DNA from: Candidatus Nanoarchaeia archaeon
Lineage (GTDB): Archaea; Nanobdellota; Nanobdellia; Woesearchaeales; JANQNC01
Assembly: GCA_028279745.1 (NCBI GenBank)
Contig: JANQNC010000001.1
Span: forward strand, 273,876 to 337,875
Reading direction: 5' to 3'
Length of the DNA: 64,000 nt
The notes beneath the pieces were generated by a model. The model worked only from the letters and a program-made list of their open reading frames with translations, did no database searches and had not been told where the DNA came from. The stretch's first letter is position 1. Each line of letters starts with the position of its first letter. Positions 4,761-57,412 of the stretch are shown piece after piece. The position numbers and the translations under genes were made by a program.

Positions 4761-5401
4761 TAAAAAAACTAATAAAAAAAGCAGTATTGAGCTTAATACC
4801 TAACCGATACATTATCAGAAAAGGAAAAAACAAACTTTACCTGACTTTTGATGATGGTCCCAATCCAGTTTACACCCCCAAAATTCTAGACATATTAAAA
4901 GAAAGAAACATTAAAGCAACTTTTTTCTTGATTGGTGAAGAAGCAGAAAAATACCCTGATATAGTAAAAAGAATCCATCAAGAAGGTCACAGCATAGGCA
5001 ACCACACACATACGCATTCAAACCTATCCAAACTGTCAAAAAAAGAAATAAGAAACGAAATTATCAAATGTTCTGAAGCCATAAGAAATATAACTGGTGA
5101 ACGACCATCACTGCTTAGACCCCCTTTCTTAAAACTATCTTTGATCTCTTGGTTCCTAAATAAAACACCCAAAGTAAGATTAGTTCTTAACTCACTAGAT
5201 AGCCTAGACTATAAAAAAGAAAATGAAAACATAATAATCTCAAGAGTCAACCCAAATAAGGTAAGAAATGGAGACATTATATTATTTCATGATAACAACA
5301 AATATTCACAATTTAAGGGAACACAGGAAAGTACCATTAATGCACTTCCAACAATATTAACAAGACTTCAGAGAAAAAAATTTCGATTTGGAAAATTATG
5401 A
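4757..5401 (+). CDS. Polysaccharide deacetylase (NodB homology domain, CE4)
   Basis: LYLTFDDGPNP...ATFFLIGEE...GHSIGNHTHTH (NodB motifs 1-3). The start was moved to ATG 4757 (MIKKLIKK), which overlaps the stop of the upstream gene as ATGA; the track's 4676 start would overlap the upstream CDS by 85 nt. Confidence 0.8.
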   Translation: MIKKLIKKAVLSLIPNRYIIRKGKNKLYLTFDDGPNPVYTPKILDILKERNIKATFFLIGEEAEKYPDIVKRIHQEGHSIGNHTHTHSNLSKLSKKEIRNEIIKCSEAIRNITGERPSLLRPPFLKLSLISWFLNKTPKVRLVLNSLDSLDYKKENENIIISRVNPNKVRNGDIILFHDNNKYSQFKGTQESTINALPTILTRLQRKKFRFGKL

Positions 5402-5411
5402 GGAGAACAAG

Positions 5412-6464
5412 ATGAAAATTGCAATAGTTGGTTTAGGACAAATTGCTGACGCACATATCTGCGAGATAAAAAAGATAAAAGGCTGCAAAGTAGTGGGTAT
5501 CTGTGATAAAGTCAACTCTATACTGACCATGTTTTCGCAGAGACACGGAATAAAAAACAAGTATACCGAATTTAAGACTATGCTCAAAGAAACAGAGCCC
5601 GATGTTGTACATATAACCACCCCTCCCCCCTCCCACTTCAGTTTAGGCAAAGAAGCAATACGACAAGGCTGCAGCACATACATAGAAAAACCATTCACTC
5701 TTTCACTAAATGAAACTGAAGAACTAATAACGCTTGCAAATAAGAAAAAAGTTAAACTTTGTGTAGGGACAGACTGTCTTTATTATACTGCCATGTATAA
5801 AGCGATGGAGTTTGTTAAAAAAGGAAAAATTGGGAGGGTCACACACATCGAAACAGTAATGAGTTATGACCTAACTGGAATCTTTGGAAAAGTCTTCTTA
5901 TCAAATCCTTCCCATTGGGTGAATAAACTACCTGGAAAACTATTCCAGAACATAATCTCCCACCCTCTTTCCGCAATAGTCCCATTCATAGGTGATACGT
6001 ACAAAACTTTTGCTTGGGCAAGTGACTTTTCAGAAAATGGAATGGTTAGTGATGAGTTGAGACTTCAAATATTCAATGAAAAAGAAAAAATCACTGCTTC
6101 ACTTGTTTTTACTTCAAACATAAAACCTGCCACGTTTCAAGTAAGATATTATGGCACAAAAAAATCAGTATACTTCGATAATATATTAAATACTTTGTCT
6201 ATTGAAAAAACCCCCTCAATTCCAAGCAGGATAGGTGAACTCATAAAAATCAAAAATAACATTACCAGTTTGAAAAAACAATTATGGCATATGCTAAAAG
6301 GATATTTTACTGGGAAAGAACAATATTTTTCTGGTATGAACCGGATGATAAGTACATTTTATGATTCAATAAAACACAACACACAACCACCCGTAAGCTA
6401 CACAGAATTAAGAAGAACTGCAAAAATAATGGACGAGATGATTGTCCAACTGAGGCGAAAATGA
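5412..6464 (+). CDS. Gfo/Idh/MocA-family NAD(P)-dependent sugar oxidoreductase
   Basis: MKIAIVGLGQIADAHI Rossmann N-terminus and EKP motif (YIEKPFTLS); GAGGAG ribosome-binding site before ATG 5412 (the track start at 5388 is a TTG). Confidence 0.75.
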   Translation: MKIAIVGLGQIADAHICEIKKIKGCKVVGICDKVNSILTMFSQRHGIKNKYTEFKTMLKETEPDVVHITTPPPSHFSLGKEAIRQGCSTYIEKPFTLSLNETEELITLANKKKVKLCVGTDCLYYTAMYKAMEFVKKGKIGRVTHIETVMSYDLTGIFGKVFLSNPSHWVNKLPGKLFQNIISHPLSAIVPFIGDTYKTFAWASDFSENGMVSDELRLQIFNEKEKITASLVFTSNIKPATFQVRYYGTKKSVYFDNILNTLSIEKTPSIPSRIGELIKIKNNITSLKKQLWHMLKGYFTGKEQYFSGMNRMISTFYDSIKHNTQPPVSYTELRRTAKIMDEMIVQLRRK

Positions 6465-7468: not shown

Positions 7469-8583
7469 AAAATAAACCCAAAATTATAACCATATCCACA
7501 CAATTCCCAAACCCCCGAGATCATTCTAGGGGAGTTTATGTATTAAATAGACTAAAAGCAATGCAAAAATACTTTGATGTAGAAGTAATTTCCCCCCTGC
7601 CTTGGTTTCCTTTCGTAAAGAAGAACAGACCAAGAAGAATGCCTTCTTCAGGAATAGTTCAAGGAATCAAAATTCATTACCCTAGGTTCTTCTCCATCCC
7701 AAAGTTCTTTAAATTCCTAGATGGGTGGTTCTTCTATCTTTCATTGAAAAAATTCGAAGAAAAAATAAAAGAATCAGATATTGTTGATGCTCATTTTGCG
7801 TGGCCTGAAGGGTATGCTGCATGGTTACTTACAAGGAAAATAAATAAAAAGCTTTCAGTCACATTACGAGGCAGCGATATCAACGTTAAACTTCAACAAA
7901 GACTGCTAGGTGAGAGAATTTCTGGGATGTTGATTGGGGCAGACAAAATTATATCTGTAAGCCAGAAACTAAAAAATAAGGCTCTGCAAAAGGTGGAACG
8001 AGAGATTGAAGTAGCATCAAATGGAGTAAACACTTCAATTTTTAATCCTTTAGGTAAAAAGAAATCCAGAACTGAATTAAACCTGCCTTCAAACAAAAAA
8101 ATAATCCTTTCTGTGGGGAGACCCTACAAACTAAAAGGGTTTTATGAATTAGCTGAAGCAGTTAAGGGCTTGGATGTTTTACTAGTTTTAATAGGTGATG
8201 ACAAAGATGGAAGAGTTAAATTCATTAATTTCCTTAAACGTCAAAACATAACAAATGTCAAGATTATCAAAAAGGTAAAACACGAAGACCTTTACAAATG
8301 GTATTCGGCCGCAGACCTATTCGTTCTTGCAAGCCATAGAGAAGGCTGGCCGAATGTCGTTATGGAAGCGTTGGCATGCGGCAAACCTTGTGTTGTTACA
8401 AAAGATGCTGCAGGAGAATTCATAACAAAAGATTTAGGATTTATCACAGATTATTCAAATCTTTCTAATATCATTGTTGAAGCTTTAAACCACAAATGGA
8501 ATGAAAAAAAGATAGTTAGTTTCGCCAGACAAAACAGTTGGGAACAAACTGCAAAGAAAGTTTACGAACACCTCATAAAATGA
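7465..8583 (+). CDS. Glycosyltransferase family 4
   Basis: HREGWPNVVMEALACGKPCVVT (GT4 E-x7-E motif). Confidence 0.8.
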   Translation: MKNKPKIITISTQFPNPRDHSRGVYVLNRLKAMQKYFDVEVISPLPWFPFVKKNRPRRMPSSGIVQGIKIHYPRFFSIPKFFKFLDGWFFYLSLKKFEEKIKESDIVDAHFAWPEGYAAWLLTRKINKKLSVTLRGSDINVKLQQRLLGERISGMLIGADKIISVSQKLKNKALQKVEREIEVASNGVNTSIFNPLGKKKSRTELNLPSNKKIILSVGRPYKLKGFYELAEAVKGLDVLLVLIGDDKDGRVKFINFLKRQNITNVKIIKKVKHEDLYKWYSAADLFVLASHREGWPNVVMEALACGKPCVVTKDAAGEFITKDLGFITDYSNLSNIIVEALNHKWNEKKIVSFARQNSWEQTAKKVYEHLIK

Positions 8584-38983: not shown

Positions 38984-39532
38984 ATGTTTATAAGGAAGTT
39001 CGTTCCTCCAAAAGAGCGGATGTTAAAAGAGAAATTGGGGGTGGACGAGAGAGATGCAGTTATACTCTCCATGTTTGCTAAAAATCCAGAAGTTAGTCAA
39101 ACAGATTTAGCTGAAGCTTTGAAACTGAGCCAGCCTTCTATCAATGCGCGAGTACAGAAACTAAAGAAAAAAGGACTATTATCATTAACAGCAGGGATAG
39201 AGTTCAACAAAACAGATATGTACATGGCAAGAGTTGACTTTACCGCACCAAATTCTGAAGAAATATTGAGTCAGTTGCAGAACTGTTCTTTCTTCGTAAA
39301 TGGATTCATAATGTCCGGAAGCAATAATGTATCAGTCTTTATTGTAGGACATGATCTGCAGAGGATCGAGAACATAATCAGCATGCACCTAAGATCCAAC
39401 CCAGACATAAAAGACATAAACATGAGTGTTGTCGTAAGTTCAGCAAAACCATTCATATATTCAGTAGACATAGAAAAAGAAGAAAATTCTGATTGTGAGA
39501 ACTGCGACAAGTGCAAAAACAAAAAGGAATAA
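38984..39532 (+). CDS. Lrp/AsnC-like transcriptional regulator with a C-terminal Cys-rich tail
   Basis: HTH (SQTDLAEALKLSQPSINARVQKLKKKGLL) plus RAM-like domain; C-terminal CENCDKCKNKK; TATA-like TTATATA about 27 nt upstream of the ATG. Confidence 0.55.
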   Translation: MFIRKFVPPKERMLKEKLGVDERDAVILSMFAKNPEVSQTDLAEALKLSQPSINARVQKLKKKGLLSLTAGIEFNKTDMYMARVDFTAPNSEEILSQLQNCSFFVNGFIMSGSNNVSVFIVGHDLQRIENIISMHLRSNPDIKDINMSVVVSSAKPFIYSVDIEKEENSDCENCDKCKNKKE

Positions 39533-39539
39533 ATCGTAA

Positions 39540-40013
39540 ATGAACCAACTAGCACATATATTCATAAGTTATCTCGTAGTTGATCTAATAATCCCAGATG
39601 CACAGCAGTACTTATTGCCAATAATTCTTATATCATTATTTATGGATATAGATCACATTCCAGGATATTTTAAGATGTTCAAGATGTCAAAGAAAAAAAG
39701 AAAATCTTTGAACATGGATCAGTTGAACAAACTAGTTAGAAGCGGGATACAAGAACCGTTGGGTGTTTTGGTCATGTTAATAATTTTGGGTGTGTTGTAC
39801 CTTCTGGGAATTAGAGACCCAGTTGTTTTGATTGCAGCAATCATAATACCTCTACACTGGTTGGTTGATTTTTTAACTGTGCACACAAGACCACTACTGC
39901 CATTTAACAATAAATTAGTTGTTCTGTTTTTTGATTCGATGAAACAAAGAATCGTGAGTGAGACAGCAATAACAACAGTAACAGGAATACTTTTCTTGAT
40001 TGCTTACTTCTGA
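39540..40013 (+). CDS. Membrane-bound metal-dependent hydrolase-like protein (YdjM/DUF457-like)
   Basis: 4 TM helices with DIDH motif. Confidence 0.4.
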   Translation: MNQLAHIFISYLVVDLIIPDAQQYLLPIILISLFMDIDHIPGYFKMFKMSKKKRKSLNMDQLNKLVRSGIQEPLGVLVMLIILGVLYLLGIRDPVVLIAAIIIPLHWLVDFLTVHTRPLLPFNNKLVVLFFDSMKQRIVSETAITTVTGILFLIAYF

Positions 40014-40106: not shown

Positions 40107-41477
40107 ATGAATGTACATTCACTTGAAAAAATATACTTAAAAAGCCCTTTAGCTCTGCAAAACATATTAGTAAGCACTTACGGATTAAGAGAGCAAAGGA
40201 TAAGATACGGAGGCATCTATAAAACACATCATAACTGGTTGCTTAAAACACAATGGTTACCTAAAGACGAACTAAACAAGATAGAAAGTAACTTATTAAG
40301 CCAAACCCTCCAGAATGCATTAGTAAACGTGCCATTCTATAAAGACTTGACTATAAAGAAAGAAGCTAGTTTAGAAGACTTCCCCACAATTCTAAAAAAA
40401 AGGTTTTTTGATGAACCAAACGCATTCTTGTCAAAAAAATTTGCAAACAAAAAATTACTAACTCTCCACACTAGCGGCAGCACAGGGACTCCGTTGGCAA
40501 TAAAAATGAATAAAGATACTAGGCGAAAATCTTACGCATTTATGTCTCGATTTTACAACACGATTGGTTTCAAGGCAGGTGAGAAAAAAGCAACATTTGT
40601 AGGAAGACGAGTTCAACTTCCAGACAATAACAAACCTCCCTTCTGGAGATATAATCTTTTTGATAACCAGCTACTTTTCTCTTCATACCATACAAGCAAA
40701 AAAAATCTTTGCCACTACTTAAAAAAACTGGACAGATTTAAACCAAAACTGATAGAAGGATACTCTTCAAGCATTTTAAGAATTGCCCGACACATCCTGG
40801 AACACTCAGTAAACCTAAACCACGTACCAAACTCAATTGCTGTTAGCTCTGAAACTCTTACAAAAAAACAGAGAGATGAGATAGAAAGTGCTTTTGGATG
40901 TAAAGTGTACAACCAATATGGATCTTCAGAAACTGCTTTATTTGCAAGCGACTGCGAACACCAAAAAATGCACATAAGTCAAGAACACGGAATAATAGAA
41001 GTTCTACAAAAAAATAAGCTTAACCGAAAAGGGGAAGGGGAGCTTATAGTCACAGGATTTATTAACCCTGTAACACCTTTTATACGGTATGCGATTGGAG
41101 ACAGGGGCTCAATCTCTTACAAAAAATGCAAGTGTGGAAGGCAATCACCCATTATTGAAAAGGTTGAAGGTAAGATAAATGACATAATAGTGACCCCTGA
41201 CGGAAATCATGTTCCTTCTGCAGGACTTATCTTGGCGTTTGAGTACTTGAACTCGATCAAAGAATCTCAGGTTGTGCAAGATAAAAAGGATGAAGTTTGT
41301 GTGAACATAGTTCCAAAACTCAACTATAACAAAAAAGAAGAAAAATTCATGCTATGGGAGCTAAGAAAAAGATTGGGAAGCAAAATGAAGATACACATCC
41401 AAAAAGTAAAAGAGATAAAAGTGAGCTCAAATGGAAAATACAAATTTATAGTTCAAAATTACCTTAAGAAAAAATAA
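40107..41477 (+). CDS. Phenylacetate-CoA ligase-like adenylate-forming enzyme (PaaK / CapK / F390 synthetase family)
   Basis: LTLHTSGSTGTPLAI (AMP-binding motif), YNQYGSSE, GD-R-type C-terminal motifs. Confidence 0.7.
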   Translation: MNVHSLEKIYLKSPLALQNILVSTYGLREQRIRYGGIYKTHHNWLLKTQWLPKDELNKIESNLLSQTLQNALVNVPFYKDLTIKKEASLEDFPTILKKRFFDEPNAFLSKKFANKKLLTLHTSGSTGTPLAIKMNKDTRRKSYAFMSRFYNTIGFKAGEKKATFVGRRVQLPDNNKPPFWRYNLFDNQLLFSSYHTSKKNLCHYLKKLDRFKPKLIEGYSSSILRIARHILEHSVNLNHVPNSIAVSSETLTKKQRDEIESAFGCKVYNQYGSSETALFASDCEHQKMHISQEHGIIEVLQKNKLNRKGEGELIVTGFINPVTPFIRYAIGDRGSISYKKCKCGRQSPIIEKVEGKINDIIVTPDGNHVPSAGLILAFEYLNSIKESQVVQDKKDEVCVNIVPKLNYNKKEEKFMLWELRKRLGSKMKIHIQKVKEIKVSSNGKYKFIVQNYLKKK

Positions 41478-42209
41478 TCAGTTCTGAATATCAAAAGAAG
41501 TTAGTTCGCCGTCTTTTTCATTCATGATAGAAGTTCTGACACTGATCTTGCTTTTAAGCTTGTTTTCAATCAGCCATCTGTCAGAAGGAATCACTTTCTG
41601 TTTTTCTAATTCTTTCAAGGTATACCACTTAAGCTTGCCATACTCAGAATTCCTAAACTTATCATGAGTTGTTGTGACTTTTGTGAAAAACAAGATAAAA
41701 TTGTGTTTGACCATATCATCCCCTTCAACCCTCTCCTGCAGTACTGCGTTCATAGATGAGAATTTTGTGTCTAAGTTTGTCTTTTGTTTAACTTGTCTAA
41801 GACTTGCCTGCTCAAAATCTTCTTCCAAAAGCATCTTCCCTCCGATCAAAGACAGGTAATCTTTGTAAGGACGTCTGTTTCTTTTTATCATTAAGATCTT
41901 TTCTTGGTTTTTCTCTTTTCTCATCGCAGCAACCAGAATAATAGGTAAAGGAGAAAGTTCTTGACCCACTAAATTTGAGAAAAAAGGCAAGTACTTCTCA
42001 GAATCTTTAGTAAGATAGTAATAATCTCCTTTCTTTTCAACTATCCCTTCTTTTTGCATACGTTCAAGATGGTAGCTTACCATGTTAGATCTAATCTTGA
42101 TCTTCTTTTCTATCTCACTGAACTTCAGCTTTATACTGTCTAGGAAAAGTTGGAATATTTTCTCTCTTTCTTCCTTAACTAAGCTTCCTGAATACTTCAT
42201 TTTAGTCAA
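41478..42209 (-). CDS. Winged-HTH (ArsR/MarR-like) N-terminal domain fused to a degenerate NUDIX domain; candidate regulator
   Basis: N-terminal IRSNMVSYHLERMQKEGIVEKKGDYYYLT (wHTH); C-terminal GGKMLLEEDFEQASLRQVKQKTNL (Nudix-box-like with RE->RQ). Confidence 0.5.
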   Translation of the reverse strand: MTKMKYSGSLVKEEREKIFQLFLDSIKLKFSEIEKKIKIRSNMVSYHLERMQKEGIVEKKGDYYYLTKDSEKYLPFFSNLVGQELSPLPIILVAAMRKEKNQEKILMIKRNRRPYKDYLSLIGGKMLLEEDFEQASLRQVKQKTNLDTKFSSMNAVLQERVEGDDMVKHNFILFFTKVTTTHDKFRNSEYGKLKWYTLKELEKQKVIPSDRWLIENKLKSKISVRTSIMNEKDGELTSFDIQN

Positions 42210-42234
42210 ATGAATTCGAGGAATTATTTAAATA

Positions 42235-42287
42235 TTAGCAAAAGGTTACGTCCTTTTGCTAATTAGAAAAGGACGCTGCCCTTTTCT
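42235..42287. promoter_or_regulatory. Two adjacent hairpin/palindromic elements (TTAGCAAAAGG-ttacgt-CCTTTTGCTAA and AGAAAAGG-acgctgc-CCTTTTCT) in the divergent HTH-NUDIX / NUDIX intergenic region
   Basis: Read directly from the sequence; perfect 11-bp and 8-bp stems sharing an AAAAGG/CCTTTT core. Confidence 0.45.
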
Positions 42288-42329
42288 ATATTTACAAGCA
42301 TTTATAACTGACTATCGACGAGGTGGAAA

Positions 42330-42797
42330 ATGGCAGAAATCAAAGAAAAAGCACATTATGTGGCTGTAACAGGAATAATAAGAAAAGACGGGAAATACCT
42401 TATATGTAAAAGAAGCCCGAAAGAAAAGGCATTCCCAAATATGTGGTGTGTGCCTGGCGGAAAAGTTGAGATGCAAGACTTTATCAACACACCAAAAGAC
42501 ACACAAGACCATTGGTTAGATATTCTAGAAAAAGTATTGAAAAAAGAGATATTTGAAGAGACTGGGTTGAGTGTGAAGAATATTGGATATGTATCCAGTT
42601 TAGTGTTCATAAGACCAAATGGATTTCCCACCATAATCATCAGTTTATGTGCAGACCATCTTGCAGGAGATATCAAGTTAGCTAAAGATGAACTAGTGGA
42701 ACATGCGTGGGTGACAGTAGAAGAAGCAAAAAAGTATGAACTGATAGAAAATATATACGAACAGATAAAGAAGGTAGATGAGACACAACCTTTTTAA
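42330..42797 (+). CDS. NUDIX hydrolase
   Basis: GGKVEMQDF...EKVLKKEIFEETGL (GX5EX7REUXEEXGU Nudix box). Confidence 0.8.
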   Translation: MAEIKEKAHYVAVTGIIRKDGKYLICKRSPKEKAFPNMWCVPGGKVEMQDFINTPKDTQDHWLDILEKVLKKEIFEETGLSVKNIGYVSSLVFIRPNGFPTIIISLCADHLAGDIKLAKDELVEHAWVTVEEAKKYELIENIYEQIKKVDETQPF

Positions 42798-55861: not shown

Positions 55862-56616
55862 TTTTTCTTAGCATCCTCTTTCTCTTTATATTTTAAACCT
55901 TCGAAAGCATCAATCCTTTGTTTGATGAATTTCTCATCATACCCTTTCTCTTTTAAAACTTTGATCATAAGTTCAAAATTAGCATCCTGAGCAGGGCCTC
56001 TGCAACCCCAACAAACTAATCCACCATTAGTGCAGACTGAGTTACAGCCCCCATTAGTTACAGGACCAAGACACGGAAGACCTTTTTCTAGTAAACAAGG
56101 ATTTCCGTTATGCCTGCACTCAATACAAACGGGTTTTGAGTACATCAAAGGTTTTTTGCCTCTTAATAAGTCATCAATAAACCCAAGAATCTCTTTTTTA
56201 TCTGGAGGACAGCCTTGGATGTAATAATCTACTTTAACATATTTGTCAACAGGACTTGGATCAACATCCGTAATCTCTAAAGCTTTATGGTAAATTAATG
56301 GTTGAATGTTTTCAGGAGGTGTGAAGTTTCTTAATGCTGGAACTCCTCCAGTAGTTGCACACGCACCTAAAGCTATGAAAATATCACATTGATCTCTGAT
56401 CTTTTTTACCATCTCTTCATCGTGCTTAGATGTAACAACCCCTTCAAAGAAAACAATGTCTAAATGCCCGTCATACACTTTTTCTTTAATGAACGGAAAA
56501 CTTTTTACATCTATCTTTTCTAAAACTCCCAATAACTCTTCCTCGTTAAATATAACTGAAAGTAGACAACCTTGACATCCTGTCACGCTATAAAATCCTA
56601 CTTTAGGCTTAGTCAT
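55849..56616 (-). CDS. [NiFe] hydrogenase small (delta) subunit, group 3b
   Basis: MTKPKVGFYSVTGCQGCLLS, GACATTGG, GCPP motifs; start set at MTKPK. Confidence 0.85.
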   Translation of the reverse strand: MTKPKVGFYSVTGCQGCLLSVIFNEEELLGVLEKIDVKSFPFIKEKVYDGHLDIVFFEGVVTSKHDEEMVKKIRDQCDIFIALGACATTGGVPALRNFTPPENIQPLIYHKALEITDVDPSPVDKYVKVDYYIQGCPPDKKEILGFIDDLLRGKKPLMYSKPVCIECRHNGNPCLLEKGLPCLGPVTNGGCNSVCTNGGLVCWGCRGPAQDANFELMIKVLKEKGYDEKFIKQRIDAFEGLKYKEKEDAKKKWLE

Positions 56617-57412
56617 TTTTGAAATTCTCCAGCTCATCCCATCTAAAGACAGGACCATCTAAACAAGTATATTTGCCATGAATCATGCAATGACCACACA
56701 TTCCTAAAGCACATTGCATCAATCTTTCAGCACTTAAGAAAATTTGTTCCGATTTGAAACCTTTTTCTTTCAGTAATCCTATTATCTTGTTGATCATGAT
56801 AGGTGGACCGCAAAGGAATGCAACAGTGTTTTCGCTGTTTATATCTAGTTCTTTCATCCTTTCCATCAGATAACCCGTTTTCATCTCAAAACAAGCCAGG
56901 TCATCACCTTCTTCTGCTTTGTCAACAGACATCATCAAATTGTATTTATTTTTCCATTCAGGAGTTTCTCTTCTGAATAAAACATCATGAACACTTCTAT
57001 AACCGAAGAAAAGATCGATGTTTTGGTAGTCTTCTCTGTTCTGGTCAACATAATCAATAATCCCTTTTAGTGGAGCAACACCACAGCCGCCACCTATGAT
57101 CAAAAGGTTGTTGCCTTTTAGCTCTTGCATAGGATAACCTTTACCGTAAGGACCTCTGACCCATATCTCGTCACCTTCTTTTAGCTTTCCAAGACTGTTT
57201 GTTACTGAGCCAATCTCTCTAACGTTTAGTTTCATGTGATCTTTTGAATATGAACAGATAGAGATCGGAGCTTCACCAATACCTGGGAGAGATACTTGAA
57301 TGAACTGACCTGGTTCGTGGTCAGTTTTGAAATCTATCACGATAGAGAAATTATCAGGGCTTTCTCTATAAAATTCTAAAATTTTTACCTTTTGTGGGAT
57401 GTAGTCATTCAT
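56609..57412 (-). CDS. Sulfhydrogenase gamma subunit (FAD/NAD(P)-binding, 2Fe-2S)
   Basis: FNR-like fold and C-terminal CALGMCGHCMIHGKYTCLDGPVF cluster motif. Confidence 0.8.
   Translation of the reverse strand: MNDYIPQKVKILEFYRESPDNFSIVIDFKTDHEPGQFIQVSLPGIGEAPISICSYSKDHMKLNVREIGSVTNSLGKLKEGDEIWVRGPYGKGYPMQELKGNNLLIIGGGCGVAPLKGIIDYVDQNREDYQNIDLFFGYRSVHDVLFRRETPEWKNKYNLMMSVDKAEEGDDLACFEMKTGYLMERMKELDINSENTVAFLCGPPIMINKIIGLLKEKGFKSEQIFLSAERLMQCALGMCGHCMIHGKYTCLDGPVFRWDELENFKND

Follow-up and report, generated by a model that had tools for sequence, protein, structure and literature searches.

A predicted winged-helix Nudix regulator of DPANN archaea and its candidate operator in a conserved divergent promoter

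The NrtR proteins, bacterial regulators of nicotinamide adenine dinucleotide (NAD) metabolism, join a winged helix to a Nudix effector domain whose signature sequence is perturbed (Rodionov et al. 2008, PMC2330246). None of the four Nudix proteins in a study of S. acidocaldarius has a helix-turn-helix (HTH) (PMC10311068), and a literature search turned up no account of a Nudix regulator whose HTH is N-terminal, nor of any Nudix regulator in archaea. A second point of reference is the archaeal bidirectional promoter, in which divergent transcription start sites (TSSs) lie 49-52 bp apart around one symmetric TATA box, with a recognition element for transcription factor B (TFB) on either side (BRE-TATA-BRE). 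This spacing comes from TSS maps and in vitro transcription in P. furiosus (PMC6640164) and T. kodakarensis (bioRxiv 10.1101/2020.01.31.928960). Here we analyse a divergent gene pair from a Candidatus Nanoarchaeia archaeon, located in a stretch of 64,000 nucleotides of contig JANQNC010000001.1 (the window). Gene A encodes a fusion of a winged helix-turn-helix (wHTH) to a Nudix domain, while gene B encodes a Nudix hydrolase. Our preferred reading, to which we assign a probability of about 0.6, is that A is a local one-component regulator of an uncharacterised family, which represses itself and controls B through a palindrome at positions 42205-42220.

As judged from its homologues, the A family occurs widely among DPANN archaea (Woesearchaeota, Pacearchaeota and related Nanoarchaeota). 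These organisms have tiny genomes with few recognisable regulators and are thought to depend on salvaged nucleotides; to our knowledge, there are no cultured genetic systems for them. If A is a regulator, the locus would provide one of the few directly testable DPANN circuits, with an identifiable operator, a single-TATA bidirectional promoter of 52-57 bp and partner genes from nucleotide metabolism.

The fusion protein and its divergent partner

The two genes and the domains of protein A are laid out as follows:

41478-42209, minus strand: open reading frame of gene A, with its actual start at ATG 42200; wHTH-Nudix fusion of 240 aa, a predicted one-component regulator
41478-41480, minus strand: stop codon of gene A
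41961-42200, minus strand: wHTH of protein A, residues 1-80, with recognition helix IRSNMVSYHLE
41481-41951, minus strand: Nudix-fold domain of protein A, residues 84-240, catalytically degenerate and proposed to be a ligand sensor
41772-41840, minus strand: degenerate Nudix box of protein A, GKMLLEEDFEQASLRQVKQKTNL, in which REUxEExG has become RQVKQKTN
42330-42797, plus strand: gene B, Nudix hydrolase of 155 aa, MutT/NudI-like

The start of gene A was placed at ATG 42200 rather than at TTG 42209 because all of its homologues (194 proteins of 235-240 aa) begin with MKYSG. The spacer between the two start codons is therefore 129 bp, not the 120 bp given by the first-pass annotation of this DNA. 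A scan of species-representative genomes yielded 80 loci, to which contig look-ups of the closest homologues added five; counts out of 84 given below comprise the 80 scan loci, loci L081-L083 and the window. The divergent arrangement of a wHTH-Nudix gene and a Nudix hydrolase gene, which the first-pass annotation had picked out, recurs in related genomes: by tblastn, 66 of the 84 loci (Woese- and Pacearchaeota) have B as the immediate upstream neighbour of A, in divergent orientation. None of the other genes near A in the window (adenylate-forming enzyme, Na/H exchanger, EndoIII, Lrp-like and YdjM-like) is conserved beside A in any locus.

The N-terminal domain is predicted to adopt a winged helix fold of the ArsR/SmtB type. 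An AlphaFold2 (AF2) model of the full protein, built with 34 homologues, reaches a predicted local distance difference test score (pLDDT) of 86.7 and consists of helices at residues 10-21, 27-34, 38-50 and 65-78, a strand at 24-26 and a wing of strands at 54-63, followed by the Nudix fold. Modelled alone, the N-domain has a pLDDT of 81.5 and the DSSP topology H-E-H-H-E-E-H, and its Foldseek matches, with template-modelling (TM) scores of 0.67-0.78, are to CadC, HlyU, SqrR, AspA and the DNA-binding domains of OhrR/MarR and IclR proteins. The match to CadC (1u2w) has a TM score of 0.74. Structure prediction thus bears out the winged HTH that had been proposed for the minus-strand gene and returns a DNA-binding fold where its absence would have spoken against the proposal. 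Over residues 10-70 Pfam offers weak matches to winged-helix families (ArsR, HTH_5 at E 5.5e-4, DUF7347, MarR, TrmB), NCBIfam gives ArsR/SmtB at 2.8e-4 and PHROG gives 'transcriptional regulator' at 5.7e-6; the PDB matches to a profile of the domain are all wHTH regulators, with E-values (0.007-0.1) that are marginal. Several homologues have precomputed matches to PF01022 or PF12840. Residues S38, N39, Y43 and H44 are invariant among the homologues. Cys is absent from residues 1-84, and their only His is part of the recognition helix.

The C-terminal domain matches Pfam NUDIX (PF00293) over residues 96-210 at 38.1 bits (cut-off 21.1), and its box in the window protein is GGKMLLEEDFEQASLRQVKQKTNL. 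Here REUxEE reads RQVKQK, the three Glu having been replaced by Gln, Gln and Lys, and the Gly by Asn. The degeneracy therefore goes further than the change of RE to RQ that was noted at first, and it holds across both major clades: the Woese clade has the box consensus R(L/Q)VKEK and the Pace clade RIMKEK, the two clades together accounting for 79 of the 84 locus-encoded A proteins, and Lys in place of the second Glu of EE is near-invariant in the family. Stand-alone Nudix proteins of 150-168 aa (for example P0174, P0158 and P0178) are related to this domain; unlike the fusions of the window clade, in which the glutamates are replaced, they lack a wHTH and keep the canonical REVKEETG. P0174 is 36% identical to the Nudix domain of A over 152 residues (E 6e-36), with LRQVKQKTNL of the window protein aligned opposite LREVKEETGL. 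Common to the stand-alone relatives and the A family are the motifs KxPYxGYW..GGK, LHER and a C-terminal IPSDxW with a beta-hairpin extension. Because the stand-alone relatives keep REVKEETG, we regard the fused domain as probably a derived pseudoenzyme. Proteins of the A family now carry the annotation 'NUDIX domain-containing protein' or 'ADP-ribose pyrophosphatase YjhB'; they are probably not hydrolases. An exhaustive profile search with A collected 74 clusters (50% identity) at E <= 1e-30 and 581 at E <= 1e-10. Two proteins, P0170 (289 aa) and P0198 (304 aa), are tandem double-Nudix proteins, each combining an A-lineage module that has an intact box with a second, different module.

It might be argued that A is still an enzyme, that is, a bifunctional, DNA-tethered or autoregulated Nudix hydrolase. 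Residues E127, R135 and E156 are invariant in the A family, one box Glu survives in most members, and five fused relatives (L035 and L038-L041) have a fully canonical REUxEE; NrtR proteins of the NuhA type, whose boxes are intact, are active (PMC2330246). Against this stand the replacement of all three box Glu in the window protein and the near-invariant Lys across the family, together with the finding that a perturbed signature leaves NrtR proteins inactive and that restoring the box raises kcat 600-fold (PMC2330246). We consider an enzymatic role for A highly improbable.

As for the ligand, the full A model finds its best Foldseek match in the NrtR Nudix domain complexed with ADP-ribose (3gz8, E 2e-10), and many other Nudix enzymes fall within two orders of magnitude of that E-value; more than 500 structures match at E <= 1e-3, the 50 best listed being all Nudix structures. 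ADP-ribose is the effector that frees NrtR from DNA; ADP-ribose-bound NrtR is the closest fold match, and matches of the MutT, NudI and NadM types are equally near. Family models did not name a ligand, all NCBIfam matches for A and for the active stand-alone relatives being far under their cut-offs and a mixture of MutT, NudI, NadM-ADPRase, NAD diphosphatase and folate-type enzymes.

Protein B matches NUDIX (PF00293) at 48.5 bits (cut-off 21.1). The first-pass annotation had called it canonical, a description that is approximately right: the box keeps E..EE (KEIFEETGL) and departs from the signature by Lys in place of Arg and by an insert, DFxxxxKDTxxHW, which is conserved and about 15 aa long. 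All 66 B orthologues beside A retain both the box, as [K/R]E-x2-EE, and the insert. In the PDB, protein B comes closest in sequence to a MutT-related protein of Methanosarcina (3grn, 3e-7) and to NudI (9e-6). That A and B are recent paralogues was ruled out, the Nudix domain of A matching B by BLASTP at an E-value of only 4.2. By sequence, the box with its insert is placed thus:

42456-42569, plus strand: Nudix box of protein B, with insert

A conserved palindrome in the divergent promoter

Since the names of the homologues place the host among the DPANN archaea, as a woesearchaeote or nanoarchaeote, promoters were read in terms of TATA boxes and BREs and not of sigma-70 elements; the G+C content of the window is about 35%. 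The A-proximal part of the spacer contains three features:

42205-42220, minus strand: 16-bp palindrome CTCGAATTCATTTGAC, family consensus CTCGAA-N4-TTYGAG; candidate operator between the TATA box and the A start
42218-42223, minus strand: TTCCTC (GAGGAA on the plus strand), invariant, overlapping the left arm of the palindrome and in the BRE position towards B
42225-42234: near-palindromic TATA box TATTTAAATA, centred about 29 nt from the A ATG and, in relatives, common to the divergent gene

Together these make up a conserved element (42205-42234 in the window), which an anchored alignment with refined starts detects in 72 of the 84 loci, spanning A identities from 100% down to 33%: TATTTAAATA-(A/G)-TTCCTC(G/A)AA-N3/4-TT(C/T)GA(G/C)-TAA, followed by the A ATG. 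The TTCCTC hexamer carries the highest information content of the alignment, lying 20-24 nt from the A ATG and, in the Pace clade, exactly 32 nt from the B ATG. The arms of the palindrome, CTCRAA and TTYGAS, are symmetric well beyond expectation: 4.74 of six positions pair, whereas shuffling the right half leaves 2.85 (at most 3.1 over 200 trials). Moreover, 38 of 39 Woese-clade loci space the half-sites by N4 and 30 of 31 Pace-clade loci by N3, and this spacing tracks a change in the recognition helix of A from RSNMVSYH (N4) to RSNKLAYH (N3).

The element is nearly private to A. A position weight matrix scanned over 578 kb (the motif-bearing loci plus the window) locates the site at A promoters only, plus one extra copy, and 42205-42223 is the sole full match in the 64 kb of the window; a weak operator-like match at 7744-7761, with three mismatches, is at chance level. 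The search for a wider regulon gave only this one further site, L004 4715-4734. This copy lies just downstream of A in the orientation seen towards B (palindrome, GAGGAA, TATA) and precedes genes at 4771-5232 and 5207-5590, whose products of 153 and 127 aa have no match in Pfam, NCBIfam or PHROG.

In relatives, the A and B start codons lie close together: the median spacer is 57 bp, with 52-57 bp in 34 of 66 pairs and at most 75 bp in 55 of 66. From the TATA centre to the A ATG the distance is 26-30 nt in 51 of 62 loci; to the B ATG it is 25-29 nt in 32 loci and 37-43 nt in 12, the latter class probably having a short leader with a Shine-Dalgarno sequence. By inference from these distances, the ancestral A/B unit would be a single-TATA bidirectional promoter giving two (nearly) leaderless mRNAs, with the palindrome between the TATA box and the A start and overlapping the GAGGAA at the BRE position for B. 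In three Pace-clade loci (L067, L069 and L071) the B homologue is 355-566 bp from A, and an intervening start codon lies about 32-34 nt from TTCCTC, the usual position of the B start. This suggests that an inserted gene has taken the place of B at the bidirectional promoter.

Such geometry invites another explanation, namely that the conserved element is a core promoter only (BRE-TATA-BRE plus initiator) serving two leaderless genes, with A binding elsewhere or not binding DNA at all. GAGGAA does lie exactly at the BRE position of B, the right arm touches the A start codon, and bidirectional promoters of this type are already known (PMC6640164; bioRxiv 10.1101/2020.01.31.928960). However, a generic promoter should recur, and this motif has a single occurrence at each locus of the 578 kb and one in the 64-kb window. 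Nor would a core promoter account for dyad symmetry well over that of shuffled controls, or for a clade-specific spacing that co-varies with the recognition helix. The element also follows A when the partner gene changes, and in a third clade it lies on the upstream side of the TATA box, inverted. For these reasons we judge the core-promoter explanation unlikely.

The change of partner is seen where B is absent and the element stays with A. In eight loci (L002, L006, L010, L019, L031 and L081-L083) the divergent gene encodes a protein of about 260-290 aa with the motif MGYGxTYxREP, and the same geometry of about 33 nt is kept, as read on L002. The gene for this protein is followed by one for a dNK-family kinase (PF01712, 35.3 bits) or for a 135-aa protein beginning MSKGKVLxDW..., the positions concerned being 1525-2944 in L081 and 549-1756 in L002. 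Some of these relatives have A proteins of 67-70% identity. Neither the MGYGxTYxREP protein nor the 135-aa protein matches any model in Pfam, NCBIfam or PHROG.

The third clade is formed by the five fused relatives with a canonical REUxEE (41-44% A identity), none of which has B as a neighbour. The element is turned round in L035, L039 and L040, where the order is palindrome, GAGGAA, TATA, A; L038 and L041 lack it. An intact box coincides with an absent B at these five loci with a hypergeometric p of about 3e-4 (18 B-less loci among the 84), a figure to be read with the caveat that the intact-box loci probably form one clade and so are effectively a single evolutionary event. These fusions may be autoregulated active enzymes, representing a stage before the dead sensor.

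Twin hairpins and the surroundings of the locus

In the window the single-TATA geometry of the relatives is broken. The 129-bp spacer contains a hairpin insertion, which leaves B 100 nt from the TATA box of the conserved element. The features on the B side of the spacer are these, the last three being placed by sequence:

42234-42263: inverted repeat IR1, arms 42234-42245 ATTAGCAAAAGG and 42252-42263 CCTTTTGCTAAT, 12 bp and perfect, with the 6-nt loop TTACGT
42264-42288: inverted repeat IR2, arms 42264-42272 TAGAAAAGG and 42280-42288 CCTTTTCTA, 9 bp and perfect, with the 7-nt loop ACGCTGC
42287-42294, plus strand: TATA-like TATATTTA, 39.5 nt from the B ATG
42300-42307, plus strand: TATA-like ATTTATAA, 26.5 nt from the B ATG
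42320-42326, plus strand: Shine-Dalgarno-like GAGGTGG, 3 nt before the B ATG

Both TATA-like sequences fall within the distance classes found in relatives, and either TATATTTA or ATTTATAA could be a separate B promoter made by the insertion. At the position equivalent to GAGGTGG, the closest relative (L085) has GAGGTGGTG.

The two inverted repeats had been recognised at the outset, each with arms one base shorter than the 12 and 9 bp found here. They are directly adjacent, IR1 abutting the A-side TATA box and the right arm of IR2 running into the B-side TATA-like element, and IR2 is approximately an inverted copy of IR1 (22-nt arms, 77% complementary). The hairpins are real and non-random. Perfect hairpins with arms of at least 9 bp and loops of 3-9 nt number seven distinct cases in 64 kb, three of them within 42234-42288; Markov simulations give an expectation of 0.17 per window for arms of at least 12 bp; and AAAAGG-N4-9-CCTTTT occurs three times in the window against 0.2 expected, the third copy being in a coding region. 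That third hairpin (AAAAGG-N6-CCTTTT, 57102-57119, within the open reading frame 56609-57412) is at chance level.

The first-pass annotation took these hairpins, with their AAAAGG/CCTTTT cores, to be the operators through which A controls both genes. Their clustering between A and B is statistically unusual, and each adjoins the upstream side of a TATA-like element, a position where archaeal regulators can act. Comparison with related genomes, the check by which that proposal was to stand or fall, gave the opposite result: the inverted repeats are not conserved. They are missing from the spacers of 85 out of 85 related loci, including those of the relatives with 72% and 70% A identity, which keep the B-A pair with spacers of 74 and 68 bp, and this in a family whose recognition helix is nearly invariant. 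They also share no sequence with the conserved palindrome, which remains beside them at 42205-42220. As conserved operators the hairpins are therefore rejected, and control of the two genes through them is very unlikely.

Because the hairpins are missing from relatives, they are, on this comparison, an insertion of about 55-65 bp that is specific to the window lineage and lies outside the conserved switch. A repeated or mobile element was sought and not found: there is no other copy in the window, blastn-short, run with the hairpin block on 624 kb from related loci, gave chance matches only, none better than 13 nt, and a metagenome scan for IR1 gave four matches in unrelated contexts of 30-61% GC, again at chance level. 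The hairpins were likewise rejected as a known RNA or terminator, searches of the window having returned no tRNA, no Rfam family and no terminator-like site.

Whether the insertion itself does anything is a separate matter. It could be a functional, lineage-specific addition, either a structure in the 5' untranslated region of B or the site of another factor that uncouples B. The perfection of the arms (12/12 and 9/9) implies recent origin or selection, and the RNA of this region has a folding energy of -28.6 kcal/mol (z = -3.35) and an alternative 2:3 pairing. A B transcript initiated from the old TATA box would start near 42255 and carry IR2 in its leader. The absence of an Rfam match in the window and of a terminator-like tail argues against such a role, as does the fact that perfect quasi-palindromes also arise, without function, by template-switch mutation. 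On balance we regard a functional addition as possible but doubtful. The alternative pairing, 9 bp and perfect, joins 42249-42257 to 42267-42275, that is, the loop and right arm of IR1 to the left arm and loop of IR2, and the resulting three mutually exclusive hairpins (1:2, 2:3 and 3:4) resemble the layout of an attenuator. This layout may follow simply from IR2 being an inverted copy of IR1.

Turning to the neighbouring genes, the one convergent with A (40107-41477, plus strand) encodes an adenylate-forming enzyme of the PaaK / F390-synthetase / DVU_1553 type, scoring 106.7 bits in NCBIfam, under the cut-off of 300; it adjoins A in no relative. Further away lie a gene for an Lrp/AsnC-type regulator (38984-39532, plus strand; HTH_24 at 1.4e-11, weak AsnC_trans_reg) with a Cys-rich C-terminal tail, SDCENCDKCKNKKE, and then one for a YdjM-like membrane protein (39540-40013).

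Proposed mechanism and comparison with known systems

In the mechanism that we propose for A as a self-repressing regulator, a dimer of A would bind CTCGAA-N4-TTYGAG through its ArsR/SmtB-like winged helix. Bound A would occlude the DNA that separates the TATA box from the A TSS, blocking polymerase or the recruitment of TFB, and in this way would repress its own, probably leaderless, promoter; B would be co-regulated through the overlapping GAGGAA at the BRE position. The ligand of the dead Nudix pocket would be of nucleotide type, derived from a nucleoside di- or triphosphate, and its binding would change the affinity of A for DNA. In the window, the lineage-specific insertion would have moved the ancestral common TATA box to 100 nt from B and would probably have given B a TATA element of its own. 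Binding of A to the palindrome, its dimerisation, the sign of regulation and the ligand are the parts of this scheme that we infer. Because the partners of A are a MutT/NudI-like hydrolase or a dNK-like kinase, we put forward control of the (deoxy)nucleotide pool as the purpose of the circuit, as a hypothesis only.

Several observations weigh against this scheme. The palindrome of the window is imperfect, with four of its six arm base pairs formed. The wHTH of the window protein stays under the model cut-offs (HTH_5 20.2 bits against 22; NF033788, HTH_metalloreg, 20.6 against 55), and the A family as a whole is borderline on ArsR/SmtB sequence thresholds. The invariant E127, R135 and E156 and the box Glu that survives in most members leave room for residual catalysis or metal binding in A. 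Matches of the Nudix domain of A are scattered among MutT, NudI, NadM-ADPRase and NrtR. Finally, TTCCTC/GAGGAA and the right arm beside the ATG could be core-promoter elements, a BRE for B and an initiator for A, in place of an operator.

A bolder scheme can be drawn from the same data, in which A is a ligand-gated selector of promoter direction and the family records a stepwise path from enzyme to sensor. The first part is suggested by the palindrome lying downstream of the TATA box of A and yet atop the BRE for the divergent gene; if correct, ligand occupancy would set the direction of a single complex of TATA-binding protein and TATA box, towards the regulator or towards the hydrolase. The path, in turn, would lead from an active stand-alone Nudix protein through an autoregulated wHTH-enzyme fusion, a middle stage represented by the L035/L038-L041 clade, to a dead sensor, at which stage catalysis would be outsourced to a separate hydrolase on the same promoter side. 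We think it improbable that this scheme is right as a whole. Stand-alone and fused relatives of A that are presumably active, as judged by an intact box only, are available for comparison.

When the preferred reading, A as a local repressor of its own gene and controller of B, is set beside systems already described, three comparisons are instructive. With the ArsR/SmtB regulators (CadC, HlyU and SqrR; in archaea AspA and Lrs14-like proteins), A shares the predicted fold and order of helices, a target that is palindromic (in A a candidate) and the recognition-helix pattern ...S..HL..L/M...G. It differs in that its wHTH is devoid of metal or thiol sensor sites, sensing being assigned instead to the fused Nudix-fold domain. 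To the bidirectional promoters of P. furiosus and T. kodakarensis, the locus is similar in sequence geometry, having in the relatives one near-palindromic TATA box midway between divergent start codons 52-57 bp apart; unlike those promoters, the putative A/B promoter would serve two genes that are both protein-coding and apparently leaderless, and its arrangement is conserved across many species and has a palindrome embedded in it.

The closest comparison is with NrtR. Like NrtR, A is predicted to be a one-component protein with a Nudix effector of perturbed signature and a winged helix, and its candidate palindrome overlaps the promoter, as the NrtR operator does; NrtR is often autoregulated, as is proposed for A; and NrtR structures are found both as the best Foldseek match of A (3gz8) and, as AraR/NrtR chains, in the profile search. 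The likeness in logic with a reversed order of domains, which the first-pass annotation had suggested, is thus upheld, the wHTH of A occupying residues 1-80 and the Nudix domain residues 84-240. In NrtR, by contrast, the Nudix domain precedes a characteristic C-terminal wHTH, whereas the N-terminal wHTH of A is ArsR/SmtB-like. The NrtR operator is a 21-bp site, GT-N7-AC, and the candidate site of A a 16-bp one, CTCRAA-N3/4-TTYGAG(/S). NrtR neighbours genes of NAD metabolism, while A neighbours a MutT/NudI-like hydrolase gene or a dNK-like kinase operon; and NrtR is bacterial, while the host of A is an archaeon with a TATA/BRE promoter. The NCBIfam NtrR equivalog model scores 17.4 bits on A, against a cut-off of 400, and over the Nudix part only. 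Because domain order, wHTH type, operator and regulon all differ from those of NrtR, A is best placed in a family of its own with an NrtR-like logic. It is likely that the fusion arose independently of NrtR, and the principle of using a dead Nudix domain as a sensor has apparently been invented a second time, independently, in these archaea.

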